A stretch of DNA of 61,492 nucleotides, the filler included, from Sphacelaria rigidula (lineage: Eukaryota), in the NCBI GenBank assembly GCA_964200075.2. It is 10 parts of 10 records of this genome, joined end to end, with 100 filler letters (N's around TTAATTAATTAA, not from the genome) between each part and the next. Parts side by side here need not be neighbours in the genome. Positions count along the whole stretch, not along the records: positions 36,958 to 43,016 come from CAXNAA020022514.1; 9 more parts are not named here. One strand, written 5' to 3'. Made by a program: the position numbers and the translations under genes. Below are positions 1 to 55,284 of the stretch, piece by piece. Each line of letters opens with the position of its first letter. Position 1 is the stretch's first letter. The notes beneath the pieces were generated by a model. That model ran no database searches and was not told the DNA's origin. It worked only from the letters and a program-made list of their open reading frames with translations.

Positions 1-84
1 GAAGATTTTAATCCTCCGGGTTCTCATCCTCAATCAATAGCACCATCCTCAACATAGATGATTGGCTGTTTCCAGGGCAATCAT

Positions 85-1649: not shown

Positions 1650-1935
1650 GTATGTGTGTGTTGTCATCCCATTTATTCTTGAAGTCGGTTTACACCTTTC
1701 AGTATATTATGTAGGCGCACAAGCCGGGGTCACACAGGAGGAAGGCCAACACAGGAGGTTTTCTTTTCTCATTTGCTTTTAGTTCTCCACCTTCCTTCTG
1801 CGGTGCTTGACTTTGTGTTTTATCGCAAGAGGAGTTCAGCAATCCCTTTTCCTCGTCGGTCGTTGAGTCGAATTTCGTGTACCCACGACATAGTCGCTCT
1901 TCATCGTTGAGCATAGTCTGAGAAAATCCCAGCTT
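1650..1935 (+). repeat. Dispersed SINE-like/non-autonomous repeat; partial minus-strand copies at ~16410-16485 and ~49276-49355
   Basis: TGTGTGTTGTC(A/G)TCCCAT(T/C)TATTCT...GGCGCA.(A/C)AGCCG shared by three fragments. Confidence 0.7.
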
Positions 1936-2445
1936 GCGTATGCGCTGTAGATAACAAATATGCAACGTGGTACCATTGTTCTCCACTTTATCAGTAGAGC
2001 TGACTGCAATGTTTGAAATGTTCGAGCGCGAGAGTAGCGCTACTCGTTTCTTCGCTTCTCCTGACCCGTATTTGGCGGTTCATCATCGTATGTTAGATCT
2101 CAGACTCCTTCGCTGCGACCAAAGTCCCCCCTTGATAAATAACCCATGACTTGGGTCTCTATGTCCACCTGATGAAGGGCCATGTCTCGTCATTGAATGC
2201 GGAGTAGCCGGCCTGACAGACACGGTACATTACTGTATTCCGTCTTCCCTGAAGCTGACATAACGACCTATGGCCTCATTAGTGCAGGGTTACACAAAAC
2301 AATGAGAAATATGTTCTTCGATTTACGCACCCTTCCCCCGACGGTGAGTTCGCGCAAGTAGCACACACTCCCTTGCAGTTGTCTGATCTCCACCTTTCGT
2401 GCTTCTTTCCATTAAATCAGCTCTACTGCACTTTCTGCTTGAAAA

Positions 2446-4870
2446 ATGAACAGCAAAGCTCAAAGCTCCCATCTTCGGACGGTTCCCAGGACGATGACTG
2501 CGTATTACACGTGTTCCTTGTTGGCCGCCTTCCTCATCATGGATGGGGCTTCGGTAGCAGCGCGGATCCTGCAAGACGCTGTTGAAGTGGGCGACTTCGT
2601 GTGGTCCCTTGGATGCTGGACAGATGAAATTGGCAACCGTGTGCTGTCTGGTGCTTTTTTGAAAGCGGACCCCGAGATGACGACGGAGGTACTTCCTATT
2701 CATACACAACGAATGTCACATAATATTTGTTCACGTACGTGGTGGTACCTACGAAGCTCGTTATGGTTCCTTCTTGGTTTCTTGTACTCCAGCTCACGTT
2801 TAACATGGCAGAGAACTTACCTACCGCAATGGGAGGTATGCCGTCGTCTGTTTCTGCATTTTCCGTAGCATGGCGATACAGCTGCTATTCGTAGTCTACC
2901 AGGATAACGAGTGAACTAAGGCATCCCGTGACCCCTACCGGTGCGCGTGTTATCTATTTCGTTTGGAGCGCAGAAATGCGCGACCGAATGTATCGGGTCT
3001 ACTTACTTCGGAACCGAATATGCCGAAGAGGTGAGAGCAGTGCCGACAGGTGAAACGATCGAGGGCGACAGGCGCAATAGCCATAAACAGAGGTCACTCT
3101 GGGCTGGTCTTAGTCACGGTTCGGAGTCTGTGGGGAATTCCATGCATACCTATGCATTCAATGCGGATCCTGCACACAAGATTCACATATCCACGCAGGC
3201 GGTGGTTGAACTTGTTCGCCTTCCGCAATGAGCGTAGACTTCGGAAACACATCGAGCAACTACTCAAGGTGTAGAGAACGCTAGTGTTTCCCCGTCGGTG
3301 GACAGCAGCATAGTCGAGTCGCTACGGCTAAATACTGACTAAAGGCTTGCTGCATTTCTACCACACTGTTTCCCCCCCCCGTCACATGTCGTACGTTCCC
3401 CCGTCTTTTCGCTCTGCTTTATCAACCATACTGCAAGCAGTGCTTCTGCGGGTCGTCCATCGACAACCCCGCCGTGCATGGCGTGTCCACGGATTGCGAC
3501 ATGCCGTGCAGCGGGGATTCCAGTCAACTCTGTGGGGGCAGATATGCTATTAACGTCTTCAAATACACCAACTACAGGAGTCTTGGGTGCTTCGCAGACG
3601 ATGCGCCCGGTCGAGTGTTGTCCGCAGCAACCTTTCAGGTTCCAGATATGACCACCGATGTGAGAAGAGGAAGTGAATATATTTGATCCGGCACAACACA
3701 TACATGTACAGCCGTTTGTCATTGGGAGAATATCCCGCAACATAAAACCTTGACGATACCAGTAAGATCTACGTCAGCAATTTACGTGGAAACATTTCTG
3801 CGGACGTACTGTTACCTAAGGGGTTGCTTTAGCAGCATGTTGTTTCAGTGACGCATGCTCAGACGTCGTCTAGGATTCCCCAGCATACAGTTTGCCGCCG
3901 CCGACAATCGCAGGCAATCGCAAAGCATAACGAAATGTCTGCATGTGGTTCGTGTGATGCAGACTTTGGTAGAGGCTGCGGTTTTCTGTTCGGGGTGTTA
4001 GTCGGCTAGAAGTTTACGTGTTGCGATGCCTCTCTCAAGTAAAAAAGTGCAGAAATTTGGGGTTTCCCTTGCGACATCTCACTGTTCTTGGTAGATGTGC
4101 GCGGAACTATGCGATGGGTATCAGGTCTTTGGAACTGAGGATGGGACAGAGGTGCGCACGGTATTGGGCTAGGCATGTTGATGATGTTGCGTCCCAGTAT
4201 TACTTCAACCGCGGTAGCACCAGTGGTGGACGAAGTTCACGAAGTATTCCAAGCTCCAGTTCGCGTTATCACGCAGTAAACACGTAACCTCGACCTATCG
4301 ACCACTGCCCTGGGCAGAGGTTACTTTCAAAGTACCCGCAATCATAATTCTGTAGCCTCAGAAGGTAGCCGAATGGTGCCATCTTGTTTTCATGTCCTCC
4401 GACGACGGAGCGCCTATGTCGCTAGTTGAAGCCAATTCAAATATTCTTGACTCAGCGTAACTGCTTTTGTACTCATATGCCCCGTCAGATGAGCGCTGAA
4501 GGATTGAAAATACGGCCAGGCTCGAATCACACACGAACGAACACAAGCCCTGACTGTAACGCGTCGTATATGATAGCTTAACACACCCCAAGTGATTATT
4601 TCATCGGGTACCGATGCGTACACTCCTTGTGTCACCAGGCAACCTTCATGCGCAACATTTTCACGGGTCGGGGACTCCCGTCGCACCTTCAATTGCCGTG
4701 CCGCTATGTGATTGCAGTGCTTCTGTGGATCTGACATGGACGTGGCAGATGCACTTGGAGTATCCTCTGATTGTAGCAGTGCATGCGCTGGCGCTCCGTC
4801 CGAGGTTTGCGGTGGAACCAGCTTAATCAACGTGTACAGAGTAGCCTCTGCTAGTTCAGCACCAGTTTGA
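2446..4870 (+). CDS. Secreted protein with two WSC carbohydrate-binding domains; exons 2446-2688, 2974-3030, 3441-3659, 4095-4151, 4718-4870 (242 aa; start may be ATG 2494)
   Basis: All introns GT-AG, phase 0. Spliced ORF gives SLGCWTD...MTTEKCATEC..YFGTEYAEECFCG...CDMPCSGDSSQLCGG..AINVF and a second copy SLGCFAD...MCAELC..FGTEDGTECFCG...CAGAPSEVCGG, the 8-Cys WSC pattern; hydrophobic N-terminus; TGA at 4868-4870. Confidence 0.92.
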
Positions 4871-13212: not shown

Positions 13213-16181
13213 CACCCGTGGACAGATAGCACCCTGTGGGGCGCACTGTGCAGGGTCCGTACAGGGTCCTCCACAGTCTTTGTGGAAAAACCCTGACAGT
13301 GAAAATCCAAACCTGTACCCCTCGTAGCGTTTTGATGGGGTTTTCCCCAAGGTTGGGTTTACAGCCCTGTGTTGGCTTGTCGGCAAAGCCCTGCACAGTC
13401 ATGTGGTAGTATTTTGGTAAAAAAAAACCTCTAGTGTTTTTTTTTTTTTAATTCCAAATATTTTGGCACAATAGCTTGCCCTCCTGTCCGAGGTAAATTC
13501 CTGTTCACCCGATTTGAATCGAGCCAAAAGGGATTTATTTTGGACAGCAGGACAAGCTATTCAAAACAGATCCTTTTTTCGCCCAATTTATTTCGGCAAA
13601 AAAAGGATTTATTTCGAACAGCAGAAGAAGCTGTTCAAGATCGATCCTTTTTTCGCTCGTTTTTTAAATGAGCGAAAAAAGGATCTATTTCGAACAGCTT
13701 CTTCTGCTGCGCAAATCCCATGCACACTGGCAGATTCGGAATTTGAACAGCAGGAGAAGCTCCAGATATATCTTTACTTTGCCCTCCACTTCATCCGGAG
13801 ATTGGGGGAAAAGAGATTCATTGCGAGCAGCGTCAGGTGCTGGGCAAATCCCGCATACTGCATCGTTACCAGCGCATGGGATCCGACACGCAGAAAAAGT
13901 TGCTGAAAGGTGTTCATCCTTTTGCCCCCCAGTCCCTGTGTACATGGGCTAAAGGATGAATAGTTCTCAACAGCTTTCGCTGAATAGAGATCCCACACGT
14001 TGGATAAGTGTGTATGTCTACACCTGTGCTTCATCTGAAACCCCTGGGAAGGCGTGGCAAGATGCTGGATGACCGGGTATACCTCGCCGATCTGTCCACA
14101 TACTTCACAAAACCCCGTATTCTATGGTCTACGAACACGGACCATGTTTAGAAAATATCACTTAATCAATCGTATATAGACCATCACCCCAAGATATCTA
14201 TACTCCGTATATATCACCGCACACAAATCAAACATCAATGAACACCCGCCCCCACAACAGTATTATTCCGCCCAGCTATACCACCACAACCCTGCAGCAA
14301 AGAGCACGGGTTGGGCACAGGGATATAGACACATACACACTGCCGTGCGGGTGGATATGATGTTTTTTTCTTTGGTGAAAATTGGGGCACCTTCTTTCAT
14401 GGTCGCGACATCGCGCGGCGACGACATACGCGGGGTGCGTATAGGCGGGTGCGAGGAACAATCAACCGGCCGCCTATATTATGCACATACACACTCACCA
14501 TATGCATGCTGCGGACGCACCGCGATATAACATAGTGCAGCATATACAGGCCGCGTACGATATGCTGCACGTCGTTCAAATCCTTTTCACGTCGCAATGT
14601 AGGTAGAGAACATACATATACACTGTCTTGCGCTGTTTGTCCTGGATACGTTTCCCCTTCCCTTTCACGCCGTACTTACTGTGCTGCAGCAGCTGTGCGC
14701 GAATTTGCTGTGGAACGCGCGTGAAAAACTGGAGTTCGTGACGGTATATAACACCCGCCCCATATATATATCAAAATAAGCTGCAGGCATCTACATTGTA
14801 TACATAGCCAGCCATCTACAGTACATGGCGCCGCAAGTATAAGCACGGCGGTATAGCGCACTGTCCCGCATGCGATGGTATTGTACAATCCAGTACAGTT
14901 TATTGTTGTGAATATATATCGAGTACGCAGTATCAACCGCGCGATGAGATGTTTCATTATTCCCTGTATATTGTTTTAGTTTCGTCGACACGGGACTACG
15001 GGGTTTTCATCAGGTATAAGCATCGATGACCGAGGTAAATTGCGACCCGTTGTCATGACGTCAGCTGCAACAAAAGCTTGCGTGCAGTATGTGGGACTTG
15101 AACAGCTGAAGCTGCTCGCGATCAAGTTCTTTCTCCACCCAATTTCAGGTATTCTTGACGGTGTACAAATTCCATCTGCTATATACACGGGTGGGCACTG
15201 GGGTCTGTAACCTGGCCATTTTTTTACCTTATCCACCTTAGGCGAGATCCGCGGGTTGGGTAGACAACTGAAGAGCATTTGCACAGCATGGACAGGATCG
15301 AAACAAAACATGTCCCAGGTTATAGGCGGGTGACTCCCCTGTAGACTGGAACATGCTTTGTTTCGAACCTGTCCATGCTATGCGAATGCTCTTCAGTAAA
15401 TCAGTTGTCCACCTAATCCGCGGACCTTACCAAAAAATGTGGATAAGGTCCCAAAATGGCCAGGTTACAGACCCTAGTGGCCACCCGTGTACAGTGTATA
15501 TGGGAATATCTGTACAGGTTAAGCTCTTCGAAATGAATCATTTTTCCCCTTTTCCAAGTTTGGAATTAGGGTTTATTTCGAATGAACCAATTTTGCCCTA
15601 TTCCAAGTTTGGAATTGTAGAATTTATTTCGAACAGCAGAGGCTGTCCAAATTCCAGATTTCCATTACACTTGTGCCTCTAAAAACAATTCGGGGTATTT
15701 CAGTGTTATTGAAACGGACCTTCGAGGGTCCCAAAATTCAGAAGTAAAAAGAATACATTCCATCCACAACGACTACCACGCGTAGCTCCGTGTGTAACCG
15801 GTTGGCTATATAACGATGAAGTCGAGGGTTTGATTCCCCGTCCAACCTAGTCAGTTCTTTTTCCGCCAGTACCTTGCGCCCGCAGCTGCATGTGGAGGGT
15901 AGTGTTTGTGCGTAAACACACTGCACAGCATTGCCAGCAACGATGAACTCTTCACAGGGCGACGGAACCCTGTGATGCACACTGTTCATGACCACTGTAG
16001 AGAAACCCTGTGGAGAGGAACACTGTGATGCACACTATTCATGACCACTGTAGAGAAACCCTGTGGAGCGTCCTGTGCTGCACTGGAAAAACACTGTACA
16101 GTAAAATTTCCGCCAGAAACACTGCGCAGGGTACGCAAACCCTGTAGACCCCCTCCACAGGGTGCTATCTGTCCACGTGTG
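13213..16181. mobile_element. Non-autonomous CMC/EnSpm-like DNA transposon, ~27-bp TIRs, 2-bp TSD (TA), with nested insertions
   Basis: TA|CACCCGTGGACAGATAGCACCCTGTGG ... CCACAGGGTGCTATCTGTCCACGTGTG|TA; internal ~13480-14110 and ~15790-15970 align with the copy at 41094-42386. Confidence 0.85.
15186..15489. mobile_element. 304-bp foldback MITE with TA TSD, nested in the CMC-like element
   Basis: TA|CACGGGTGG...CCACCCGTG|TA; arms complementary almost to the centre (e.g. GCATGGACAGGATCGAAACAAAACATG / CATGCTTTGTTTCGAACCTGTCCATGC). Confidence 0.85.
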
Positions 16182-17589
16182 TATGCAGTTCGCCACATCA
16201 TGAACGCAGCCGCGTGTATCTGCGGCAAACGTGTAGGCGGGATATCACGCCACGCGCTACAGTATATCGCTACGTCACATTTTGCAAAGCTGTCCGTGTT
16301 GCAGCTACAGCGTGCGTTTGCCCCAGGTGGCGCACGCAGGAGTGAAAGGCCGCCTCGGCCGCTGTAATGGCTGCCTGCATCTTGGGCGAAGCTGAATGGT
16401 AACACAGCCGCGGCTGATGCGCCCACATATACCGAAAGGTGGAGACGGGCGCCCTGAATAGATAGGACGACAACACACACACAACACTCTGATTGCATTA
16501 CACTTCCAACATCGTGTTCGTACTGACTGTAGAAATCTTTCGTCCACGGTTGGGTACATTTCCATATAGAATGCAGGGTCTGGCACATCGCAACGTATAA
16601 TGTGACGGAGGGTCTGGCATATATCCACCTGTACATGTACGTAATAATGTTACTCCGTGATATCGAGAAAAAATGCACAACATCTGGGCGAACTGTAGGT
16701 GAGGCAATCGCCGAAATATTCACCTGCAAGCTCTGCTCCAGTGCTCTGTAAGTTGACATCGCTAGGATACTACCATAACCACCTTGCCGGCTGCCAGACT
16801 GTCACAGACACTCAGGGCGTAGGGTCCGCTAGCATTGCTACTGTCTGTACGGGGGTGTTGCCCCCTTGTCAGGTACGTTTTGGAGCATGATACTACATAG
16901 ATGAAAATCACCCTTCCTTGTACCTGGGCACCAAACGCTGGGGGTTATCACTCAAGACTTCGATTTGGAGGATCATACTAGGTAGACAGTGGCAACTGCT
17001 GTGTGTCCAGGTGCCCCTTGGAGCAGGATGCGTTTGGTGTCCGTTTAACGAAGTTATCCCCAAAACAACGAAATCGATAAGGGTTTTAGGATGGAAAAAT
17101 CTAGCAAAAACACTATCGCAAGGATCAGATCGCAAGAATCCCGACGCAAAAAAAAATATCGCAAGAGTCAGGACGCAAGAATCCCGCAGCACAAACCAAC
17201 TTCACTTTGTGAAATTGGAATGACAATGGGTTGGCACAGTGCTCAGGTCAAGATCCGAAATCCGAAAATACCAGAGGTCTACACGTTACATGCTACACGT
17301 TCACGGTACGGTCATCACGTAAAACGTATTCAACTTTCACGTTAAGTGGCGTATGTCACGTTAAATAAATTTTAACGTTACGTTAACGTTTTATTTGAGA
17401 ATTTAATGTTACGTTCACGTTACGTTTATTACGTAAAAACATATTAACGTTACGTTTCGAGACATGTAACGTCATATAAAACGTTTCAATGTCACGTGTA
17501 ACGTCTAATATGAAGTTACGTTGACACGTGTAACGTTTCAATGTCGCGTTTCATTCTGTGCATGTCGCGGCGTATTTATCAGTATTTAA

Positions 17590-24330: not shown

Positions 24331-26213
24331 ACAAATAATTATTGCACAAACAGAAACACCAACACCTCCACCAACTAGGAGAACGGCAGCAGCGGCGGCG
24401 GCAGAGGAACAGCGACAAATAACAACGATGGATTAATGTTAATATAATAGCAACCAAGTCGATGTCAAGCTTGGTACAACCTGTGACGCTAGCCAGCGCT
24501 AGAATGACAGCGTCAATATGCTTGTTCGAGGGACTCCCCNNNNNNNNNNNNNNNNNNNNNNNNNNNNNNNNNNNNNNNNNNNNTTAATTAATTAANNNNN
24601 NNNNNNNNNNNNNNNNNNNNNNNNNNNNNNNNNNNNNNNAATTGAAGGCATTTTACTGATACCTGAAAACTGATTATTGCCCTTAACTCATGAAAAAAAA
24701 ACAAAAAACCCTTTCGCACCGAGGTAATGGTCTTTTTTGTGCCCTATTCATTGTCAGTACCAAATCTCAGGGTCCACCTCTGAATGTGTAGAAGAGCATG
24801 AGCCTAACGAAAACCGGGTCGGTAGAAATTCGGAACAATATTTCGCAGGCCACTCACCGGCCCACGTTTGGTTTTCGTGTATTGAAATTTTGTGTGGGCG
24901 CTCTCTAAGGCATAATTAACAGAAAAGAGTAGGTCAGGTTGTTTAACATGTATTTTCTTCACTGGTTTAGGGCGTTCTACTATGGTAAAGACCATTTCTT
25001 CACGGAAACGCCCTAATCTCTATGAAAAATATGAAAAAATGAAACAATGAAATAAACAAAATGAAGGCCCATTTTGTTTTCTTTATTCGGCACTTTTATG
25101 TGGTTCTCCACACCAAAATTCGTCACCATCCGCTGAATGCATCGGTCGGGAGTTTCATAGAGATTTTAGTACTTGCGCTATCTCCCTTAGGTATAGGAAT
25201 GACTAGACATGGGGTTTAATCAACGAGAAAATATGGGCTCAAACTTTTGAGCAGATAGGCATCTTCCCCTTGATTAGACGGCTAGTGCGATATGCGGATC
25301 ACGACCCAACTCGTCTGTGTCGATGAGATATTGCTTTGAGAGCTTAAATCCCTTTTATGGCTGGCCCAGCTCGTACGGAATTGACGGTCCGTAGCCGGTA
25401 GACACTGATACGTCCTACTTTTTGAACGAGTTCACTTGAGTAACTTCATTATCCTACATTTCGACGTGTATCATTTACCCATTCGTCTCTTGTCTCCTGG
25501 TTATGGTGAGTCTATGTGTGCTGAGTTTGTCCAGCATTCAGCAAGGCACTGACCTTAGCTTCTCGCACGAAGAGGCAGAAATGCCAGTGTGTGTTACTTT
25601 TGTTCTCATAACCGGTGTTTTCCAGGTGCCTTCTCCTCAGTACGTCGTCTTTCTGAGCTATCGCTTGGTGGATGGGTCGACATACAGTATTCTCGGTTGG
25701 ATTGCCGACTCATTCATGAAAAGATCACCTTCGGTTGTTTACCCCGTTTTTAGTAGTGTAAGTTCACGTGCTTGTTCGATCAGTTTCCATACCCGTGTGT
25801 TGCACGAATGCCAACGGATTTTTCCGAGACTGAAAGTTTGTAGCCATCCTTTGCCGAGGAACCTGCTTGCCTTCCGAGGCCCGGAGTCCTAGGCCAGTTG
25901 TGTCAATACGCACTACTACATCGGCAGCACGTAATAACGCAGATATAATCAGCCTGTGATTACCATTTTCCCTCAAAGTACTGTATGTCGCGGTTGACGA
26001 TCACTTGACAACCTTGACGGCTCTTGAACTGTTGAATATTCTCAGGCAGCATCAGGAGGAACTGCCTGCTCCTCTTGTTCGGTCATGTGACAGTGAGACT
26101 GCTAGAATCAGCCGAAGTTGTATGCGCTAGAGCCTCTCGCTTCACCAGAGTAGGGGTGATACGAGCTTGGCAGTGCCCCCCGGGAGGGCTGCTTGAAATG
26201 GCCATCAGATGGC

Positions 26214-28433
26214 ATGACGGGCGTCGACGTCGTGGAGGTATCGGCGAACAGGGTTGGGATGACCGATGAAGTGAGCAAGGATTACGGCAACGAGTGTTTC
26301 TTCAAGAAGCCATCGTACGGTGTAGTGGGAAGTCGGATGGCGGAGTTCTGTGCCGATCACGCCAGGTCCGGGATGGTGGATGTGAGGATCAAGAAGTACG
26401 GCAACGAGGACTGCACCAAACTCCCATCGTTCGGTGTAGCGGGAAGTCGGAAGGCGCAGTTCTGTGTTGATCACGCCAGGCTGGGAATGGTGAATGTTGT
26501 GAGCAAGAGGTGCGGCAACGAGCGCTGCACCAAACTTCCGTCGTACGGTGTAGCGGGAAGTCGGAACTCGGAGTTCTGTGCCGACCACGCGAGAGTGGGG
26601 ATGGTGGATGTGAAGAGCAAGAAGTGCGGCAAAGAGGGCTGCACCAAACTCCCATCGTACGGTGTGGCGGGAAGTCGGAAGGCGGAGTTCTGTGCCGACC
26701 ACGCCAGGTCCGGAATGGTCGATGTGAGGAGCAAGAAGTGCGGCAGTGAGGGCTGCACCAAAAAACCATCGCATGGCGTAGCAGGGAATCGGAAGGCGGA
26801 GTTCTGTGCCGGCCACGCCAGGTCCGGAATGGTCGATGTGAGGAGCAAGAAGTGCGGCAACGAGCGCTGCACCAAAACACCATCGTATGGTGTAGCGGGA
26901 GGTCGGAAGGCGGAGTTCTGTGCCGGGCACGCCAGCCTGGGAATGGTAAATGTAGTGAGCAAGAAGTGCGGCAACGAGGGCTGCTCCAAACGACCATCGT
27001 ACGGTGTAGCGGGAAGTCGGTTGGCGGAGTTCTGTGCCGGGCACGCCAGGTCCGGAATGCTCGATGTGAAGAGCAAGAGGTGCGGCAACGAGGGCTGCTT
27101 CATACACCCATCGTACGGTGTAGCGGGAAGTCGGAAGGCGGAGTTCTGTACCGACCACGCCAGGTCCGGAATGGTCGATGTGAGGAACAAGAAGTGCGGA
27201 GACGAGGGCTGCTCCAAACACCCATCGTACGGTGTAGCAGGGAATCGGAAGGCGGAGTTCTGTGCCGGCCACGCCAGGTCCGGAATGATCGATGTGAGGA
27301 GCAAGAAGTGCGGCAACGAGCGCTGCACCAAACTCCCATTGTTCGGTGTAGCGGGTAGTCGGTTGGCGGAGTTCTGTGCCGACCACGCCAGGTCCGGAAT
27401 GGTGGATGTGAAGAGCAAGAAGTGCGGCAACGAGGGCTGCTCCAAACAACCATCGTACGGTGTAGCGGGAAGTCGGAAGGCGGAGTTCTGTGCCGACCAC
27501 GCCAGGTCCGGAATGGTCGATGTGGCGAGCAAGAGGTGCGGCCACGAGGGTTGCTCCAAAAAAGCATCTTATGGTGTAGCAGGGAATCGGAAGGCGGAAT
27601 TCTGTGCCGGCCACGCCAGGTCCGGAATGATCGATGTGAGGAGCAAGAAGTGCGGCAACGAGCGCTGCACCAAAAAACCATCGTATGGTGTAGCGGGAAG
27701 TCGGAAGTCGGAGTTTTGTGCCGACCACGCCAGGTCCGGAATGATGGATGTGAGGAGCAAGAAGTGCGGCAACGAGCGCTGCTCCAAAAAACCATCGTAC
27801 GGTGTAGCGGGAAGTCGGAAGGCGGGGTTCTGTGCCGATCGCGCCAGGGCGGGGGTGGCCAAGATCGTGAGTCACAAGTACGGTAACGAGGGTTGCTCGA
27901 ATCTCGAACAAGGTAACGTATGCGAACATGGCTTATCTCGAGCAACCAAAAGAGAGCAACATGGAGACATGTACGATGAACATTTCACGCAGGGCGGACA
28001 ACCCAAGCATTGCACGAGTCACGGGGGTGGTGCGTGTGATGTCGGGTTCGGCTCTGTTTTGCTCGTAACTTCCGAGCTCAATGGTTCGCAGCCTGCCAAG
28101 GGCGCCGAAAGAGGACCTCTGGGGATTAGGCCGCACGCGAGGGTGAAATCGGAAGAGTTTGCTCCCCTTCAGAGTCTCAAGAAGAGCCTGGGGAGGAGGG
28201 TTGGCGTGGTCACTTACTCTGATGAAGGTGGAGGCAGCAGGACTGGCAGTATTTCCAGCGATAGTTGTGATGGAAGAATGAAGAAGCGGATTCGCAAGAC
28301 GCCATCGATCGTTCGTGAACACTTCCGGCCAGAAGATGCTCGTGTGGATGCTTCTTCAGTGGTGTTCCAAGGAAAAGAGGAAGGCTTGAAGATGGAGCTG
28401 GCAGTTTCGGCTACGTTGCCCGACCTTGCGTAA
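26214..28433 (+). CDS. Intronless EsV-1-7 cysteine-rich repeat protein (739 aa; 14 full 38-aa C-C-C-H repeats plus a partial one)
   Basis: Consensus KKCGNEGCxKxPSYGVAGSRKAEFCADHARSGMVDVRS matches the EsV-1-7 repeat; 114-bp nucleotide period 26277-27872; first in-frame ATG 26214; basic patch RMKKRIRK in the tail. Confidence 0.93.
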   Translation: MTGVDVVEVSANRVGMTDEVSKDYGNECFFKKPSYGVVGSRMAEFCADHARSGMVDVRIKKYGNEDCTKLPSFGVAGSRKAQFCVDHARLGMVNVVSKRCGNERCTKLPSYGVAGSRNSEFCADHARVGMVDVKSKKCGKEGCTKLPSYGVAGSRKAEFCADHARSGMVDVRSKKCGSEGCTKKPSHGVAGNRKAEFCAGHARSGMVDVRSKKCGNERCTKTPSYGVAGGRKAEFCAGHASLGMVNVVSKKCGNEGCSKRPSYGVAGSRLAEFCAGHARSGMLDVKSKRCGNEGCFIHPSYGVAGSRKAEFCTDHARSGMVDVRNKKCGDEGCSKHPSYGVAGNRKAEFCAGHARSGMIDVRSKKCGNERCTKLPLFGVAGSRLAEFCADHARSGMVDVKSKKCGNEGCSKQPSYGVAGSRKAEFCADHARSGMVDVASKRCGHEGCSKKASYGVAGNRKAEFCAGHARSGMIDVRSKKCGNERCTKKPSYGVAGSRKSEFCADHARSGMMDVRSKKCGNERCSKKPSYGVAGSRKAGFCADRARAGVAKIVSHKYGNEGCSNLEQGNVCEHGLSRATKREQHGDMYDEHFTQGGQPKHCTSHGGGACDVGFGSVLLVTSELNGSQPAKGAERGPLGIRPHARVKSEEFAPLQSLKKSLGRRVGVVTYSDEGGGSRTGSISSDSCDGRMKKRIRKTPSIVREHFRPEDARVDASSVVFQGKEEGLKMELAVSATLPDLA

Positions 28434-36680: not shown

Positions 36681-36957
36681 GACCCGGGGCGCAACCTCTT
36701 GTACACCATGATGGTTGAGGGGTTGTGACAAGACAGTACGAAACAAAGTCCACTTCACTGCGGGCCGGGCTGCGGTCTACATTTCATCCGGCGAACCGCA
36801 CGCTGAGTGCGTGCGTTTGTCTCTCCTGCTCTCTCGGTTGGACACCATGTCGCAGAANNNNNNNNNNNNNNNNNNNNNNNNNNNNNNNNNNNNNNNNNNN
36901 NTTAATTAATTAANNNNNNNNNNNNNNNNNNNNNNNNNNNNNNNNNNNNNNNNNNNN

Positions 36958-39277
36958 GGCCTACTGCAGGTGGCAGCGACCGTCCAAGCTGCTACCGAAA
37001 TGTGAGAGTTGCTTTATGTCGGTCCTTCGAGTGACCACCCGCGTGATTGTCATAGAGTACTTACGAGGGCTAGGACTATTCAGGAAACGAGAGATGTGAC
37101 ATGGAAGACGTTGCCGTGACAGCTCCCTCCACCGCAACCTCCTCTGCATATTGAGATCGCGGAGAGGGAGGGGAGGAAAGTGACGACGATGTAGAAGCTG
37201 AAGTATGGCCGCTTGCAGGAAGGGGAATTCAGCACATTCGTATTCGTTTGAATCGTGATGCAGTGTTACCCTATGGTGCAGGACTCGATTAGGTTGGCAG
37301 TGTTGATGCAGGCAGTGTAGGCCAGCCCCCTTCTGTTCCATCTCCCCCCTCTGCACCGTCTTCGCCCATGAACAACTCCTCTAGTATAACTGCTCCCTCA
37401 GTGTCTTCTCCAGAAATTGAGACAGACGGGGGGGGGGGCACGAAGGGCAGGAGACAGGGGAAGTAGAGACGGCGGATCCGGGAGGGGATGATGAGGCAAA
37501 GCCGATTGGGCCGAAGGAAGTAGAGGCGGAGGCACCTCCTCCAGCCGCTCGTCGTCCGCGGCATGTCGCTGAGCTTGCTAATTTAAATACTGATGCGTGT
37601 GAGAATGATGAAGTAAGAAACGGTAGAACTCGAGCGTAAACTCGTGAAGAATGTTGAGTCAGAGCCTGGTAGCTATCAAGAAGCTCGGCATTCGAAGCAC
37701 GCGAAAAATTGGGATGGAGCCATGTCTGCAGAAGTTGAAGGCCTGATAAAAGCAGGAACGTTCACGTTAGCAGTAACGATCCCAGTAGGCTGTAATGTGA
37801 TTGATGCTAGATAGGTTTTCAAAAAGAAAGCAGACGAAACACGGAAGATAGTGAAGGCCAAGGCTAGGCTTGTAGCGAAGGGCTTCAAGCAGAAGTATGG
37901 TGTGGACTATATTGAAACTTTCTCGCCTACTGCAAATGTTGCATCGATGCGAATGCTAGTAGTATTGGCGTGCAAGTACAACTTGGAATTACTCCACTGG
38001 GATATTGAGCAAGCGTTTGTTCAGTCGGAATTGGATCACGAGGTGTTCATGAAGTTGCCTCCTGGCTTTCGATGTCAGGAATGTTGTCCGTTTGAACAAG
38101 AATTTGTACGGATTGAAACAGGCATCTAGAACATTTTACAAGAGGCTAGTGTCGGACCCGAAAATGATTGGTTTCCAGCAGTCTCTGTCTGATCCCTGTG
38201 TCCTGCGTTTCATGATGGGAAACGATGTGGTGGGTATGGTCATGATTCACGTCGATGACAATCTGTATGCAAGAACTAAGAGTCTTGCCAAGGTGATTGT
38301 GAAATCGCTAGGCGACTCTATTCCGACGAAGATTTTTGGTGAGATAAAGTTCTCTCTTGGTTGCGAATTTATTCGCGACTGCGAGGCTGACACGATTGAG
38401 GTTTTTCAAGAAAGTTACATCACGAGTGTTCTCGAGAGATTTAACATTCGTCGCACCGGCTCGATCCCTGCTTCCCTTGCCAACGATAACAGGTCCTTGA
38501 TGGAGGATGAGGGGGCAGGAGATGTGCCGTTCTGAGAGGTGGTGGGGAGTCTGATGTGGATCGCCAACCAGACAAGGCCCGATATCTCGAATGATGTGCG
38601 GGTGGTGGCGAGGCACTCTCACGAGCCAAGAAGAGTCACTGGAAGGCAGCCCAGAAGATCCTGAATTATCTTCTGGAAACGGCACATCTAACTCTGAAGT
38701 TCAAGCAGGACAGTACGGTAGACGTAGGCACGATGATATACGTAGATGCTGACTTTGCAAGCAAGGCCACTGACTGTAGATCAGTTTCGGGAGCGTTGGT
38801 TTTTGTGGCTGCCATGCTTGTACTTTGGATTTCTAGGACGCAGAAATGCGTTTCACAGTCGACATTTGACGCAGAGTATCTTGCGATGGGTGATGGTGGG
38901 AAGAAGGCTCTGTTTGTGAACGGAATGCTTCAGTTCTTGAGGCCTAGTGTGAAGCCTCGTAAGATTGAAGTACTTGAGGACAACAAGGGTGCGATTGGGC
39001 TTGCAGAGAATCCGTTTAGCTCGTGTAGGAGTAAGCACATTGACGTGAGGCATCACTTTCTTGGGAATTTGACCGAGGAGGGTGTGATCGAGATCACGCA
39101 TGTTCCCAGCAAAGAACAGCATGCGGACTTCCTCACGAAGTTTCTGCCGAGAGATCTGTTTGAAGTTCACCGTGACTCTGCCCTTGGCTTGAAAAATGAG
39201 AAGTAGAAGTCTGAGTAATAATTTCGTTTCGCATCATATATATTTGGTCTGGTAGATACATCAGCCTCAAGGGAGGG
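36958..39277 (+). mobile_element. Ty1/Copia pol 3' half (RT and RNase H, frameshifted) ending in PPT
   Basis: KARLVAKGFKQKYGVDY.ETFSP, WDIEQAF, LYGLKQASR, IHVDD, YVDADFA, EDNKGAI, RSKHIDVRHHF, ADFLTK; PPT AAGGGAGGG 39269-39277. Confidence 0.96.
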
Positions 39278-39674
39278 TGTTCGTGATAGCTGCTGTAGTA
39301 TCGACTCATCTGGTTGGACGAATCGAATAACGGAACTGTCGGTCTATAAGTTGCTGAGCTACCACATATCTGAGTATTGCGAAGAACGTTCGCGGTCCTC
39401 TCTGTTGGTTATGTAGGAATACCCTTTGTGGATACTGCATTAGTCCGAGCATGGTATTTGTGGTGCGGGGAACAACCCGAGGTTTTTGTGGTACGTAAGG
39501 AAGTGCGTTGGTCCGAGTTCCATTGCTGGAACCATGTGGTTTCTAGATTTTCTGGGATGTAGATTACGCGAGCTCGCCTACCTTGCTCATTCCACTTTCC
39601 CGACTTGTCTCTGCGGACCAAGGTCTCAAAACTACAATACATCTTTTTCTCTAGAAGTCACGAGCTTACCAACA
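39278..39674 (+). mobile_element. Copia LTR (397 bp), shared by upstream pol and downstream gag
   Basis: Begins TGTTCGTGA right after the PPT; ends TTACCAACA (imperfect terminal inverted repeat); gag-like ATG at 39762. Confidence 0.8.
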
Positions 39675-42600
39675 CGCTATAGCGTGTTGGTTGACTGCTG
39701 CTTTGTCCCCCTTGGACTGTGCATGAGACTGTAGAGGGAGGCTTGATCAACCTGCCTCATCATGGCTGAACCGGGGAACAACGATCCTGCGGTTGTCTCA
39801 GCTGCGGGTGGATCGCAGGAAGTTGGTGAGAGGGTTTGTTTCATAGAGAAACAGTTGCCTCAACCTATGACTCTAGTATCGACGCTAGTTGAGCAACAGG
39901 GAGGGAGAGTGGAGTTCTCTGGTTTTGTAGTTGCCGCGCCGGGAGGCAGCGGGCAAGAGACTAGTATGCATCTTTCTGACGATGCTACTGGTGGGACCGC
40001 GGGAAGTACGGGCGGCGATGCCCAAGTCTTAGGCGTGTCCAGCATGTGGGATGGGAGTAGCAGTCTTGCAGACTCAGGATTGAATCCTCATGTATCTGCT
40101 TCAAATCGGTCCACTGTTCCTGCAGTAAACTTTGGTTCGATCGGGACTGTAGGTGGGGCTTTAGGACAGTCCTCTGTTCCGCCCGCTCCGTCTCTGTCGA
40201 GTAAGTGGAAACACTCTGATACCTGGGGCTGACATTTCTGACACAGGAGAGAAGTTGGGTAGGGGTCCTTTTAAAGTTCCCAATGCTCCTGTTTTTGACG
40301 GTAACGACGTGTCGTATCCTTCATGGTCGCAGAAGTTTCTGTTGAGTGCCCGACACAACAATCTGTATGAGGCGTTTGTTTCTGAAGCTGATATTTCGAT
40401 TGTAGACATTGATTTCGACTTACCGACATGATACTGTTGTTGAAATTTTATACAGCCAGTAATCCAGCGGCATGTTTCGTTCTGGGTTTTGGCTGTAGCA
40501 AATTAGCGGTGCAATAGATTCCGGTTAATAAAGTGCCCCAGTAATGACCCTGGGTGCAGTTATCGTTTCATGTGGATCCTTGATGGTAAATATATTGAAG
40601 TCAAGAAAGATGACAGAGAAGTGTGCATCCTGATGCTTGAGGGACTGTCGCACGAGTACAAGACTTTGCGTGAAACTCTTGTGGTGTTCTGTCCGAATGA
40701 CCCATAGTTCATAGAGAGAAGGGTCACTTGAGGAAGGACTGCCTGGCTCGTGTGATCGCTGATCCTACCCAGACCGGAAAATCCGAGGATGCCGAGGATG
40801 AGAACGGTAAGAGGTCTAGTTTGGTGTTGCTCTCTCAAACCAGCTTGAACAACTCGAGTGATCTGACAGGTCTGGTAGCATTTTATGATGCTATGCTGCG
40901 TGAGTGCTTGTTCAGTGATGATGCTGTTCGTGAATTCTCGTCTCTTGAAAGGAAGGATAGGTGTGTCGAAGATTGGTATGCAGGCACGGATACTGCTTTC
41001 CACATGACTGATTCTCTCTCTTGTATGAAGGATGTAAAGCCTTGCCACAAGAACGTAAAAGGGATTGGTGGCGTGACTTGTGAGATAGCACTCCACACGT
41101 GGAAAATTAGCACCCTGTAGGACGAGCTGCACAGGGTTTTCCACAGTCTGTGTGAACCCCCCTGCGTAGCATTTGCAAACCCTTGTACCTATAATAGCAT
41201 TTTGAATAGCGTTTTTGTCGAAACCCTGCAAGCAACCCTGTGGAGAGGCCTTCCCAATTTGGAAAATTCCAAATTATTTTGGTACACAATCTGTAGATTT
41301 ATTTTTTTGGAATAACTTCTCTTGCTGTCCGAGATAAATTTCATTTTGGCCTGTTCAAATCGGGCAAAATGGAATTTATCTCGGACAGCAGGAGAAGCTA
41401 TTCAAAAGAGATCCTTTTTTCGTTCAAGTTATTTGGGCAAAAAAGAGATATATTCCGAACAGCTTTTTCTGCTGCGCAAATCCTATGCACACTAGCAGAT
41501 TTGGAATTAGAACAGCAGAAGAAGCTCAAAATAAATCTTCACGTTGCCCTCCAACTCATCTGGAAATTGGGCAAAAATAGATTTTTTGCGAACAGCGTCG
41601 GCTGGGCATATTCCGCATACTGCACCGTTATCAGCGTATGGAATCCGACAAGCAGAACAAAAATGTTGGAAGTAATTTATCCTTTTGTCCCCCGGTCCAT
41701 GCACACGGGCTAAAGGATGCATAACTCTCAACAGCTTTTGCTGAATCGAGATCCGACACACTGATTACGATCGAGTGTATGTCCACACGCCTACGAGTTC
41801 AGATACGACGCTTCCACTTAAGACGTGGATATTGGGATGATGGTATATACCTCGCATATGATTAGACATTGCTTTTGAAAACCCCGTGGTCCGCAGTATA
41901 CCAAAATCACTCAACCGCGTATGCTTTTGTTTAGAGAGGTTTTTGTTTGATAGTCATTAGAAGCATAAAATAGTACCGTTTCAAACAACCAATCAGGTAG
42001 CTCAATAGGCAACATGATGCACTATCGAGCACGAAGTCGCGAGTTCGATTCTTACCCTGCCACTTCTCGACAGTTAACTTCTTCCAGTACCATGCCCATG
42101 CTGCATGGAGTATATTGTATGCGTGCTATAAAGTCTGCACAGCATATCAACAGCGATGAATTCTACACGGAGTGACGAAACCCTGTGAAGCGCCCTGTTG
42201 TGTGGCACAAAATAACACCCTACAGTCAAATCCCCGCGAAAAACCCTGCACAGTTTCCCTGAACCCTGTGAAGCATCCTGTGGGGCGCAAAATAAACAAA
42301 CTACAGCCAGATCTCCGCGAGAAACACTGCACAGTTTCCCTGAATCCTGTAGACGTGTTCCACAGGGTGCTATTTGTCCACGCGTGTCTCTGGAACACTG
42401 GAGTTGGTGTCTATGACTACTGACGGCGAATCTTCCGTAGAGCTGGAGAACGTGTTGTACTCTCCCAACTTAGGGTATCACCTCTTTTCCCCCAGCGCAG
42501 AGTTTGATGCAAGTCATGGAATGGGCTTGGTGGTCCTGATGGTGTCATGACTGCTTACGACGGACATGTTACTTTTCAGCACTTGGATGGCATGCTAATT

Positions 42601-42830
42601 GCGACTGCGTATCGTCTGGGACATGACTCTGTTGGTTCGGTGTTGGCTGCCCTCAGTCCTTCAAACCCCAAGCATGAAAATAAGATGGATGTGAACGAAT
42701 TCCATAACATTTATGCTCATTCACACGAGGGATGACTTGGTACTACTGCAAAACGACTAGGTACCGAGTTGACCGGTGACATGCATGCTTGTACGGGATG
42801 TTCGATGTCGAAGGCTATTAGGAAAGGAAT
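39675..42830 (+). mobile_element. Copia 5' internal region: gag, protease and integrase Zn-finger (decayed, interrupted by a DNA transposon)
   Basis: KVPNAPVFDGNDVSYPSWSQKF, ILMLEGLSHEYKTL (gag), DWYAGTDTAFHMT (protease), FHNIYAHSH..HACTGCSMSK (HHCC). Confidence 0.88.
41094..42386. mobile_element. 1293-bp non-autonomous CMC/EnSpm-like element with 2-bp TSD (TC) inserted in Copia pol
   Basis: TC|CACACGTGGAAAATTAGCACCCTGT...ACAGGGTGCTATTTGTCCACGCGTG|TC; removing the element and one TC restores GVTCEIALSGTLEL. Confidence 0.9.
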
Positions 42831-44099
42831 TGAGGGATGCTACGGTAGGGGGTACACAAATATCTTCTGAGGTTATATTTGTTAGGAGCCATTCATCTCA
42901 TCCAAAACACCACTTATGAAAATATGCGAGACACGCCAGGGTGACTATTCCAATGTGCTGGGGATATCCCGAATTAATCTGCAAACGGGGATGCCCTGAC
43001 CCATATTCTTGTGCGTNNNNNNNNNNNNNNNNNNNNNNNNNNNNNNNNNNNNNNNNNNNNTTAATTAATTAANNNNNNNNNNNNNNNNNNNNNNNNNNNN
43101 NNNNNNNNNNNNNNNNGGTCCGTTTATCGACGCCAATTGTCATAAAGAGGGAGTTAGCTAATGCAGTGGCTGGGGTCTATCAGTATGAGTGCCGGGAGAT
43201 ACCATGGTGTCAGCCTCACCAAGCTCCCACGTGGGCAAACTCATACAGACCTAGCTATCGTCTCTTGACTTATCACAAGGTAGGTTCATTCATGTTCAGA
43301 CTCTTGATAAGGAACTCACGTGTTTGCTTAGCATCATGTTTTATCTACAAGCAGCTCTCTAACTCAGTACAGCCGCAGGGCAGCCATAGGGGCAGAGCGT
43401 AGTGATGGCCCAGGGTAGACCACGGCAATGGCAGCAACTGATCAAGAAGGGGGACCGCTGCGTGGGGCCGCGGCTAAACAACCCTAACTTATGACAGTAG
43501 CAAACGCGGTAACGACGCGTCACGGAATCCAGGGCCTACGAGCAGACCCGCACAGAGTATATCTTGCAACGCCCCTGAGCTTCATCACAGGTGGACTCTG
43601 CAAAGCAAAAGCTGTTTGAAACAAATCTTCATTTTGCCCATCAATTCACCCTGTAATTGGGCAAAGGAAAGACTTATTTACGAGCAGCCTTCACTGTTCA
43701 AGTCCGACATACGAGTGTATGTTCACACGGCCGCGCTACACAGCTTTAGCCGGTGGATATATGGTGCACTAATGGGGAATACCTCGCTATTGTATAGATA
43801 CAGGTTCTCAAAACCCGGTAGTCCATGGTCGACGAATCGAACGAAAACGGCAAAACATTTTTTCATGCATGTACTTTGATATGACGATCACAACGAGAAA
43901 GGGCACGCGGTTTGGTGCTGCATATACTGGACTGACGGTACAATATTCCGTACAGGACAGTACTATATATCGTGCTTATCCACGTACGGTGCAATATCCT
44001 GCAGAGTTAGCGTGGCATATGGGCTACGTATGGCTATACAGAGTGGATGCCTGTAACTTTGCGTACATGGGGGTGTTATATATACCGTCAGCTACTGCC

Positions 44100-47000
44100 G
44101 TATAGACCACCACGCATTGGTACGTGAATCCGCAGGAGGTGTATGTGACCTTACAATGTAGGGCGAAACTACAGTACTCGAGGGAGTCGAAACTACAGTA
44201 TTCGAGCGATCAGACTTACTAACGCTGTACGGCCGAAGACGCGTCGCTATCTGTGATGAAATCCCCGATTTTCGATCAAATCGTAATCTGCCACTGAACA
44301 AATGCATTCCAGTGGAATTCAAAGCGATACCCTGCCGCTCCTGCATGTGGTGAAGGGAGAAAATATTGAACTTGATACCCTCCACGACGTGGACATCGGT
44401 CAACTGTATTGGGAAGTCACTTGGAGGGCTGAGACATCCAAAGATCTCATGTGAAATGTCAAGTTCAAGTTACCTACTGCCTTCACAGGAAGTCTGGTCC
44501 CGTTACCCATCACGAAATATTCCATGCCCTGAGGAGGGGGTCGTAAATCAAAAACGTCATCTACTCTACCCGTGACATGAACCGTAGTGCCTGTATCCGC
44601 GAGCCATTCTTCTGCATTATCATCCTTACCAGATACAGTACCACCACCCAGTACATCATACCTACGTGGATCGTAATCACCCAGTCGTAAACGAGACTCG
44701 CCTGCGGGCATGGTACGCGCCATGAATAGCCGTGGATGTTCCCCAGTATGCGTATCGGGAGAGGCAGCAGATGTAGCTGGAGGGGCTCGCGGCTCTTGTT
44801 GTTGTTGCTGTTGGTCGTGATGTGGATCTTCGGTCTGGTATTGTTGTTGGTGATGACTGTTGTCCGGGTGAGGATAGTAGTAAGAGTAATGGCCCTGGCC
44901 CGGCGGGTGATATTGTTGGGAATGTTGCTGTCGGGGCTGTGTTCGATGTGACGGTGGCTCATGATTCTGCACGTAGTGGGTATATCTAGCATCACTGAAG
45001 TCGTCTCTGCCCGGTGGAGTGAAGTGTTCGTCAGTAGTCAGTGGCTCACTATACTGTACAAGGTTTGCACGCGAGAGAGACACCCTGGAATGTCGGTAGT
45101 CGTTGAAGTGGCGAGGATCGTCGGTGTGATGGTTACGTTGGGGGTGGTGGTCCCGTGATGCGGGGCACGCTGGTCTCGGTGAGGATATCGATTGCCATGT
45201 CGGCTATCAACATGACTGCGCCCGTCGCCTCGTGTGTGACAGATTGTGCAATTGGGAATATTGCATGATGAGGGTTGAGAGGTTGAGTTGGGGTTGTGGT
45301 CGTTGTGTGGGTCATGTGGGGATATAAAATGTGCTCGGGAATAAGGCCTTGGCGACGGGTCATGGTCATAGTGGTGGTGTGACGTCGAATTCCCAGTTCG
45401 GTCAGATCCACACTCCCGGCAGTGGTGGTTGCCCCCCCTGCCTCCGCGTCGCCTCCCCGATATGTCACTGTGGGATACATCTCGAGCTATAGCGGACAAG
45501 GCATGATTAGTCGGAGAGTCTATCCTGCTGCTCGACAGTACGTGCAGTTTTCACCGTTCGGTGAAGGGTCTCAGTATCGATATCTGGCATGGCGAGGAGA
45601 ATTCCTCTCTGGATCTGATACTCCGATGACAGCCTGCGTGCGTAATGTCTGTTTGTATCAGACTTCGAAATTACATGACCAAAATGGTCTCTTCTGGCGG
45701 ATCAGATTCGCCCTATTTAGAAATACCAAAGGCCTTCCGCCCGGGGGCATCTGCAGGCATGACCATTCGTGCTCAAGACGTGCCTTCTCAGTGGTAGGCG
45801 AAACGGTATAATACTGAACAAAATAATCTCAAGACTCACTAGGCGAACCAAGCATCGCAATTTTTTCTACCATTACGGGCGCGGTGATCTTTTCGAGGAG
45901 TATATCGTGGGCACGTTGAGCTTCCTGTACTGCTCTAAACCCATGCTGCCTTATCAACTCTTCTTCTCTTTCATGGAACACTCGAATGGGGTCTTCAACA
46001 AACAGAGCATCATAGCATTTCCCGGCACGAAAATGTCCGATCATCTGAACTTGAAACACACGAAACTTGGATTCCAGATTTCCCCCTGCTATTACTGTAC
46101 CGTCCCATGGGTGGATGCTCGTATTGTTGCGTACTCTTACAAAGTTGGGTGGGGCATGTTGCCCTCCCGTGATGTTGTCGCTTCGGAACTCTGGAAAAAA
46201 ACGTGGATTGTTCTCCTGCTCGCGGTGTGCCGTACCCACCGTGGGGTTACCTTGTGCGCCTGCGCCCAAATGCATACTCCTCTCTTTCGTACTCTGCAAC
46301 AGCATCGCGCTTTGCGGCCTCGATAAGCTCTGCCTGTTTTTCTTCCATGACTCGTAGTTTTTCGGTCTGTTCTACCTCCATACGCCTGAGTTTTCCCGTC
46401 AACTCTTCATTACTGTACTTCATGTTAGTCATGGATCGACTTTTATTATCTACTTCTGTTACTTGTTGAATCGTTTGTCTCAAACTCTCCTTGACCTCTC
46501 ACTTGTTGACTCCCTTCCTCGTTGACTCAAGCGCAATCAAATGCTGCTCTTTTGTTCGAACTGTAACGAACGCTAACTGCGTAACTCTTTTTGAAGGCTC
46601 AAGCGCTAACTAGTGCTGCTGAATTTTGTCTCTGACCATGACAAACGCTAATTGCGTAACTCTCTTTGACGGCTCAAGCGCTATGAAGTGCTGCTGAATT
46701 TTGCCTGACCGTAACAAACGCTGACTGCGTGACTCTCTTTGAAGGCTCAAGCGCTAACTAGTGCTGCTGTATCTTGCCTCGAGCTGGCTCAAGCGCTATC
46801 AAGTGCTGTTGAATCTTGCCTCGAGCTGGCTCAAGCGCTATCAAGTGCTGCTCAATATTGCTCAAACTCGCTCTCACTTCCCTGCTACTCCGGCTGCTGT
46901 ATACCCGTTTCAAACTCGCTAGCGTATTTGATGAAGGGATGATCCCGCAGAGGACGCGCTCTGGACAGGGGAACGTGTATACCTTCTTCTTGTATTAACC

Positions 47001-54179: not shown

Positions 54180-55284
54180 CTGTTGCAGGTTAAGGGCAAC
54201 GCCCGGTTAAGGGCAACTTTTCGCTTAAGGGCAAGCGGTCCGCATTAAGGGCAAGCGCCCCTGACTATGGGGAAGCGCCCCTGACTATGGGGAAGCGCTC
54301 CTGGGTAAGGGGAAGCGCCCCTGACTATGGGGAAGCGCACCTGGGTAAGGGGAAGCACACCTGGGTAGGGGGAAGCGCACCTGGGTAGGGGGGAGCGCAC
54401 CTAAATACGGGCAAGCGCCTCTGATTATTGGCGTCTGCCCCTAGCGACGGAGAAGCGATACACGTATCGTCAACATATTCCCGAATCAGCCGAAGAATGC
54501 CAAACTGTCTAGGGCGTGCTAAGGACCCACGATACGTGTGTCTCTGGCTCGTGGGCACACGATACAGGTGTCTCTCGCTTGTGGGCACGCGATACCGGTT
54601 AGGGTTAGGGTTAGGGTATCCTGTATCCTTAGTGTAATGCGTGAGAGGACCGCGTGCTTACAGGACCGCGTCGTAGTTCAAAACACCTCAGGATCGACGT
54701 TTTTCAAAACCAATCCGGCCAGTCCCTGCAGGTACTACGCCCCTGACCATAACCCCGACACTAACCCTGACCCTGATCCTGACCCTAACCCTAACCCTAA
54801 CCCTAACCCTAACCCTAACCATAGGGATATTCAAATTCCGATGCGATCCTCTAAGCACGCGGTCCTCTCACGCATTACACTTAGCACGCCCTAGACAGTT
54901 TGGCATTCTTCGGCTGATTCGGGAATATGATGACGATACGTGTATCGCTTCTCCGTCGCTAGGGGCATATGCCAATATTCAGGGGCGCTTGCCCGTATCC
55001 AGATGCCCTCCCCCCGACCCAGGTGCGCTTCCCCTTCCCCGGGTGCGCTTCCCCCTACCCAGGTGCGCTTCCCCCTACCCAGGTGCGCTTCCCCATAGTC
55101 AGGGGCGCTTCCCCTTACCCAGGTGCGCTTCCCCATAGTCAGGGGCGCTTGCCCCTAATCCGGGCCGTTCCCCCCTAACCAGGGGCGCTTCCCCCCTAAC
55201 CAGGAGTGCTTGCCTTTAATCCGGACCGCTTGCCCTTAAGCGAAAAGTTGCCCTTAACCGGGCGTTGCCCTTAACCTGCAACAG
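54180..55284. mobile_element. ~1.1-kb foldback element with 20-bp subterminal arrays and internal telomeric repeats
   Basis: CTGTTGCAGGTTAAGGGCAACGCCCGGTTAAGGGCAAC... mirrored at the right end; 20-bp unit GGGGAAGCGC(C/A)CCTG(ACTAT/GGTAA) in both arms; (TTAGGG)3 at 54599-54616 and (CCCTAA)6 at 54783-54818. Confidence 0.9.

Follow-up and report, generated by a model that had tools for sequence, protein, structure and literature searches.

A short conserved palindrome abutting the LTR as a candidate non-canonical primer site in a brown-alga Copia family

Most LTR retrotransposons use tRNAs as primers. In a Copia element of the brown alga Sphacelaria rigidula, located within the 61,492-nt stretch of DNA analysed here (the window), the place of the tRNA primer-binding site (PBS), directly downstream of the LTR, is occupied by a perfect palindrome that begins in the last bases of the LTR itself. 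The first-pass annotation had read this arrangement as a candidate self-priming system acting through the full 24 nt. The locus thus raises the question of which part of the palindrome belongs to the family, which part belongs to this copy alone, and what such a site would mean for priming.

The window is interrupted by regular N runs, one every 6159 bases, which are masks. The LTR found in it is the only copy there and doubles as the 3' LTR of the element piece on its left and the 5' LTR of the piece on its right (Table 1). The best near-full-length relative, protein P0002 (1274 aa), carries PF22936, PF00665 and PF07727. In tblastn searches against the window, its residues 480-1271 aligned to the left piece at 36959-39188 in several frames, and its N-terminal part aligned to the right piece, residues 14-136 at 40767-41093 and residues 137-284 at 42389-42831. 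P0002 is collinear with both pieces and the order protease, integrase, RT, RNase H is satisfied. The layout of the alignments therefore implies that the window holds the integrase end, RT and RNase H, followed by the LTR and then by gag, protease and the integrase start. RVT_2 (PF07727) was matched at 37815-38129 (E 2e-23) and 38053-38535 (E 1e-12), and the assignment to Copia stands, because these matches and the order of the pol pieces agree. The gag of the right piece was assigned by position and homology, because it gave no Pfam match. From 1281 candidates, 176 homologues were retained at E <= 1e-10, and the closest named ones among the 120 listed are proteins of the brown alga Ectocarpus. 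In four public sequencing runs, contigs with at least 80% likeness to positions 37800-41300 numbered 540 (X1), 2668 (X2), 2240 (X6) and 1359 (X10). The element in the window is dead and rearranged, with frameshifts and a 1.3 kb insertion in its sequence; the Ty1/Copia family it belongs to comes from a brown alga and is very high in copy number.

Table 1. Features at and around the LTR junction, in window coordinates
Feature	Position	Strand	Basis
Left piece, with degenerate pol of the Copia type: integrase C-terminus, RT and RNase H; stop TAG at 39204-39206	36959..39206	+	tblastn with P0002; RVT_2
Candidate polypurine tract AAGGGAGGG	39269..39277	+	Inferred; kept in L018
Single LTR, 397 bp, TGTTCGT...ACCAACA	39278..39674	+	Start placed from purine tract and inverted repeat
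Palindrome 5' arm ACCAACA, the last 7 bases of the LTR	39668..39674	+	Same in window and L018
Palindromic 10-nt core CGCTATAGCG, from the first post-LTR base onward, at the position of a tRNA primer site	39675..39684	+	Window and L018 identical; X6 contigs match to 39684
Palindrome 3' arm TGTTGGT	39685..39691	+	Of the sources examined, the window copy alone has it
Right piece, gag-like frames with frameshifts	39762..40431	+	ORFs; 70.5% nucleotide identity to L018 gag ORF
Right piece, protease and pre-integrase part, split by an insertion of ~1.3 kb (41094-42388)	40767..42831	+	tblastn with P0002
Another core, CGCTAGCG, its flanks complementary in part; a further Copia gag lies ~450-600 nt downstream	46917..46924	-	Possible third family

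Everything that follows depends on where the LTR ends. Its two termini, TGTTCGT at 39278 and ACCAACA at 39674, mirror each other as a 6/7 terminal inverted repeat, and the succession of a G-rich purine run and TGTT at its start recurs in L018, L019 and L029, three Copia contigs considered below. Furthermore, one contig of run X1 ceases to match the window precisely at 39674. The end that had been placed at 39674 is thus supported by its canonical CA, by the inverted repeat and by the contig boundary, with the reservation that it lacks confirmation by an LTR pair, because the window has a single LTR copy.

Across this boundary, positions 39668-39691 read ACCAACACGCTATAGCGTGTTGGT, which is identical to its own reverse complement at 24/24 positions, so that the perfect palindrome described earlier is real. 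It consists of ACCAACA, the core CGCTATAGCG and TGTTGGT, flanked by ...GAGCTT upstream and TGACTGC... downstream. TA/AT runs aside, this is the longest palindrome in the window, the runners-up measuring 16 and 14 nt, and about 0.004 perfect 24-nt palindromes would be expected in random sequence of this length (61,492 x 4^-12). A search with the 17-mer formed by the LTR end and the core returned only the two strands of this same site, shuffled sequences predicting 0.07 matches. Folded as RNA, the 51 nt around the site give a hairpin with a 10-bp stem at -20 kcal/mol (z -3.8), a value equalled by none of 200 shuffles. Two further particulars of the initial description proved accurate: the gag ATG at 39762 is the 88th base past the LTR end at 39674 and is kept in L018, and neither the window nor L018 nor L019 has a TGG in the first 5 nt past the LTR.

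Two further sources of the same family bear on what is conserved. L018 is a 4809-nt, circularly permuted and consensus-like contig, ~86% identical to the window, with the same order of RNase H, LTR, post-LTR region and gag and with long open reading frames (928 aa); it is an algal contaminant in a bacterial metagenome-assembled genome (MAG) and, as a short-read contig, possibly a mosaic of copies. The prokaryote genome records scanned included two MAGs with algal contaminant contigs, in which the LTR-PBS query matched L018 only. The other source is run X6, in which five contigs reach the site and yield a 25-nt consensus of loose ends, as far as the listing goes, which covers 24 loose ends out of 603 and 40 variant rows out of 482. 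The family is hence represented at this site by one genomic copy, L018 and one X6 loose-end consensus.

The LTR end and the core agree wherever they can be read, all 17 bases of ACCAACA plus CGCTATAGCG in the window and L018, and up to 39684 in X6. The 7-8 bases after the core exist in three versions in three sources: TGTTGGT followed by TGAC in the window, CTATCGGT followed by CGAC in L018, and CATCAGT followed by CGAC in the five X6 contigs. All differences are transitions except for a single base inserted in L018. Of the three family sources, the window copy alone thus has the perfect 24-nt palindrome, and the 24-nt hairpin is not conserved, L018 and the five X6 contigs having other 3' arms. 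Nor is there covariation, which had been proposed as a check: the 3' arm varies, and the 5' arm stays the same throughout, with no compensating change. The L018 site folds no better than shuffles (z +0.6), and a strong hairpin forms in the window copy only. We also considered CpG decay as the source of the arm differences and rejected it, the transition rate being 0.171 at CpG versus 0.150 at other C/G positions; the observed/expected ratio of CpG is 0.82-0.97.

In the sources examined, the 24-nt extension thus appears private to the window copy, whose next 7 bases would simply happen to mirror the LTR end. Correction of near-palindromes by template switching, a known mutational route, could perfect a single copy. 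An ancestor of the family may nevertheless have had a longer palindrome, because the L018 arm pairs with the LTR end at 5/7 positions, for which the chance is ~1%. Searches for more copies of the site added nothing to these three sources. One of the metagenome scans was empty and the other yielded only relatives of at most 46% identity (15 loci); viral contigs gave two chance matches to the 17-mer, with no protein relatives and no match to the leader pattern; and the spurious ORFs spanning the site, when used to sample further copies, returned no candidate.

The core recurs beyond the family. L019, which comes from the same MAG as L018, is the closest other Copia family with sequence (53.6% amino acid identity over RT-RNase H). 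Its junction consists of a purine tract and TGTTAGT, and later ...CGGGACA followed directly by CGCTAGCG and then TCTACTCG. CGCTAGCG is the window core without its central TA, and it starts at the first base after ...ACA, ~280 nt past the purine tract and TGTT; the ATG of a Copia gag, confirmed by Pfam, follows ~120 nt further on. CGCTAGCG occurs once in the 3.7 kb L019 contig, where ~0.06 occurrences are expected, and is absent from the other loci. The single occurrence in the window, where about one per 61 kb is expected, lies near a gag that is 33% identical to that of L019 (E 3e-9); we count this site, at 46917, as a hint only, because the LTR end there cannot be fixed. The L019 and 46917 families are represented by one sequence each, without LTR pairs, and the cores of the three families were compared by anchoring on the core, MAFFT alignment having left the cores unaligned. 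Around the L019 and 46917 cores the hairpin arms are partial and fold no better than shuffles. As controls, the other Copia contigs were inspected for a canonical PBS, and no clear one was seen in the loci checked: L014 has a direct-repeat pair, L012 only a 123-nt overlap of its contig ends, and the rest, including L029 and L030, neither.

Could the site be an ordinary PBS for a host RNA, that is, for a tRNA fragment or half or a small RNA containing CGCUAGCG, its palindromy being incidental? The use of tRNAs by most LTR elements is in favour of this. Half-tRNAs, moreover, serve as primers in Copia lineages, as described in passages of PMC6317226. Against it, the LTR end is not followed by TGG. 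The first TGG lies 14 nt past the LTR end in the window and ~38 nt past it in L018, and the site is not a 3'-CCA tRNA site, because TGG is absent within 5 nt of the LTR end. The canonical Copia site for tRNA-Met, TGGTAGCAGAGC, is matched by the window site at 3/12 positions, and an Rfam search of both strands gave no match. The families also share only 8-10 nt, and the two cores differ by their central 2 nt with the palindrome retained, a difference that would break pairing with one shared tRNA primer; the argument is a weak one, since a random central insertion of 2 nt keeps a palindrome in 1/4 of cases. Two further likenesses, one between the LTR start and the bases past the core and one between the core and tRNA-Met sites, were set aside as pattern-matching. 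A scan of the window and of 22 loci for tRNA genes with which the site could be compared was negative. Taken together, we consider a conventional host-RNA primer unlikely.

Self-priming of the kind known from Tf1 and predicted for the TAR lineage would leave a different trace. The criterion given in PMC6317226 for such elements is that at least 10 bp of the 5' LTR be complementary to a region 0-5 bp past the LTR. No conserved LTR complement of at least 10 bp to the post-LTR region was found. Between the LTR and the post-LTR sequence of the window, strict Watson-Crick pairing extends over 7 nt at most, namely the palindrome arm itself; with G-U pairs allowed, the longest runs are 9, and none of these has more than 6 Watson-Crick pairs. 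The best run of L018 measures 10, 7 of its pairs being Watson-Crick, and its site is not shared with the window.

A cis-acting role of the core unrelated to priming, as a signal for RNA dimerisation or packaging or as a protein-binding site by the end that integrase recognises, with priming taking place elsewhere or otherwise, is in our estimate quite improbable. Short palindromes serve as dimer initiation sites in retroviruses, as noted in passages of PMC5445492, and a place beside the LTR terminus would suit dimerisation, packaging or binding. However, the stretch from the LTR to gag yielded no further candidate for a primer site, the LTR offers no complement of at least 10 bp, and the core begins exactly at the first post-LTR base in two families.

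Still less support remains for the full 24-nt hairpin, or a dimer formed through it, as the self-priming device of the family, functional in the window copy and decayed in the other versions. The window hairpin is very stable, its perfection in a single copy is improbable by chance, and the L018 arm still matches at 5/7 positions. Yet the arm is missing in 2/3 sources, which also disagree with each other, and the 5' arm never shifts together with the 3' arm. Moreover, the consensus-like L018, with its 928-aa reading frame, does without the hairpin, and the partial arms of the related families fold no better than shuffles. The window copy, for its part, is dead, being frameshifted and split by the 1.3 kb insertion. 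We therefore regard this reading as very unlikely. Lastly, it is hardly credible that the likeness between families is due to chance and the site without function: CGCTAGCG does occur in the window about as often as expected, but 17 bases are constant within the family while their neighbours vary, and the L019 core stands flush with the LTR end in a contig where ~0.06 occurrences are expected.

On balance, and with moderate confidence, we favour the interpretation that the family has the 10-nt palindrome CGCTATAGCG, flush with the CA of the LTR, as a non-canonical equivalent of a primer site, of the kind described as CHSeq1 in fungal GalEa elements, the 24-nt form being private to the window copy. 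The short core is probably the conserved, functional part, although conservation of its sequence and conservation of its self-complementarity are inseparable here. Judging from its position, we infer that it stands in for the primer site. The proposal of a self-priming system thus survives in part: the palindrome does lie at the PBS position and TGG is lacking, but the full 24-nt hairpin is not conserved.

If the core is indeed the primer-site equivalent, the core of one packaged genomic RNA would most likely pair with the core of a partner RNA, giving a duplex of 8-10 bp, and cleavage just where the core ends on its 3' side would leave a 3'-OH facing the first U5 base. In the self-priming of Tf1, RNase H makes the corresponding cut and the duplex is 11 bp. 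Pairing between RNAs followed by a cut would be the most economical way to put a 3'-OH opposite the start of U5. Intramolecular fold-back of the conserved core is unlikely, because the core alone gives only a 3-bp stem. A broader version of the model, in which a brown-algal Copia clade abandoned tRNA priming and the cut in an 8-10 nt palindrome paired between packaged RNAs supplies the primer, a GalEa-like arrangement in a second supergroup, strikes us as doubtful.

To judge from the literature searched, fungal GalEa elements are the only Copia for which a palindromic, tRNA-independent primer site is on record. Finding the arrangement again, with another sequence and in a very abundant brown-alga family, would show that it is not a fungal curiosity, and the family would offer a high-copy system for mapping strong-stop cDNA. 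Pipelines for LTR annotation that demand a PBS matching a tRNA would miss or downgrade such elements. Conversely, the perfect 24-nt hairpin should not be treated as the functional unit.

The claim that the arrangement has no precedent in Copia cannot be upheld, because a palindrome in GalEa (PMC5445492) and a predicted self-priming in TAR (PMC6317226) are already reported in passages of these sources. Literature searches on primer sites of brown-alga Copia elements and for more reports of hairpin sites gave nothing beyond these two papers and one on bivalve TRIMs (PMC6934838), a passage of which restates the GalEa point; the brown-alga passages of PMC2806351 and PMC4350172 make no mention of primer sites.

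Compared with a canonical PBS for initiator tRNA-Met, given in PMC5445492 as TGGTAGCAGAGC for metazoan GalEa, the algal site occupies the same place, directly past the 5' LTR, but it has no TGG and the match is the 3/12 noted above. With Tf1/Tf2 (Ty3/Gypsy) and TAR, it would share the lack of a tRNA primer and the use of the element's own RNA to give a 3'-OH, after a duplex is cut at the PBS position. Self-priming has been predicted for Copia elements of the plant TAR lineage, following earlier proposals for Houba and Osr-1, as related in passages of PMC6317226. In those systems, however, the partner of the PBS is the transcript's 5' end, which lies within the LTR, whereas the algal site is self-complementary instead.

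The closest parallel is fungal GalEa, a Copia group described in passages of PMC5445492 as having no PBS and, in its place, a Conserved Hairpin Site, whose 9-nt sequence CHSeq1 is palindromic once the final A of the LTR is counted, with a complementary box (CHSeq2) 6-41 bp downstream of the first and a mechanism left unexplained. The algal sequence is unlike that of GalEa, the host is a brown alga, and there is no CHSeq2 box within 80 nt downstream: the best matches to a second box have 2-5 mismatches and are equalled by 811 to 2000 of 2000 shuffles. P0002 has the motifs KARLVA, HVDD, TRxDI and ADILTK of the ordinary Copia type, unlike the KSRLVI, QTDD and CQPEA given for fungal GalEa in PMC5445492, although these motifs are not diagnostic of the clade. 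What the two share is the arrangement. Both are Copia elements with no apparent PBS of the tRNA type, their LTRs being of the TGT...CA type if the start of the algal LTR is placed correctly, and both have a short conserved palindrome that starts from the final A of the LTR, this A being followed by CTGATCAGT in GalEa (PMC5445492), by CGCTAGCGT in L019 and by CGCTATAGCGT in the window. Read with that final A, the palindrome of the GalEa type is present as ACGCTATAGCGT in the window and ACGCTAGCGT in L019; in L018 and X6 it is limited to the 10-nt core, because the closing base is C.

The Copia element at window 36959-42831 has a single LTR, which is common to both of its pieces, in the order RNase H end, LTR, gag. 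Mapped by tblastn with the polyprotein of a near-full-length relative (P0002, 1274 aa), the two pieces jointly span aa 480-1271 and aa 14-284, and no further LTR copy of the element was found elsewhere in the window. The layout looks like a tandem, or like a derivative of a one-LTR circle, that was cut short at both ends. The protease region is interrupted by an insertion, portions of which are 75-87% identical to window 13459-16182 and which is therefore another repeated element.

In the same-family contig L018 (positions 1425-4807), the gag N-terminus and the last part of the protease region are fused with nothing in between; L018 is an internally deleted derivative. Despite the deletion, a 928-aa frame remains open, suggesting a propagating deletion variant.

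Other features are collected in the table below. In the leader of the minus-strand Copia fragment, three full repeat copies lie at 46560-46780, with weaker matches reaching as far as 46523 on one side and 46873 on the other. A CGCTAGCG core is located at 46917. The 114-bp array, seen as 13 overlapping 300-nt copies stepped by 114 nt, sits within a long 757-aa open frame spanning 26160-28433. Paired 44-base N runs with TTAATTAATTAA between them recur every 6159 bases of the window (e.g., 36858-36957 and 43017-43116); these are masks and not a biological feature.

Repeats, Copia fragments and candidate boundary
Feature	Location	Strand	Remarks
85-bp tandem units	window 64-496
20-bp tandem units	window 54206-54465, 54946-55225		TAAGGGCAAGCGCCCCTGAC-like
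114-bp tandem repeat	window 26249-27916		roughly 15 units, 76-81% alike
Insertion, ~1.3 kb	window 41094-42388		interrupts Copia protease region
Distant second Copia, gag-protease fragment	window 44236-46371	minus
73-75-nt tandem units	window 46523-46873		leader of second Copia
Possible LTR end, ...GTGAACA/AATCAC	L029 5300-5330	minus	candidate boundary

Brown-alga Copia sequence is present in two bacterial MAG records, one containing contigs L018-L020 and L029-L031 and the other L021, and six contigs match RVT_2, the Copia-type reverse transcriptase domain, in one of them, so the bins are contaminated with host repeats. L029 represents a more distant Copia family (35% amino acid identity). As at the other sites, its candidate LTR end is not followed by TGG, the usual start of a tRNA primer site; the bases that follow, AATCAC, form the complement of GTGATT, which would lie within the LTR close to that end.
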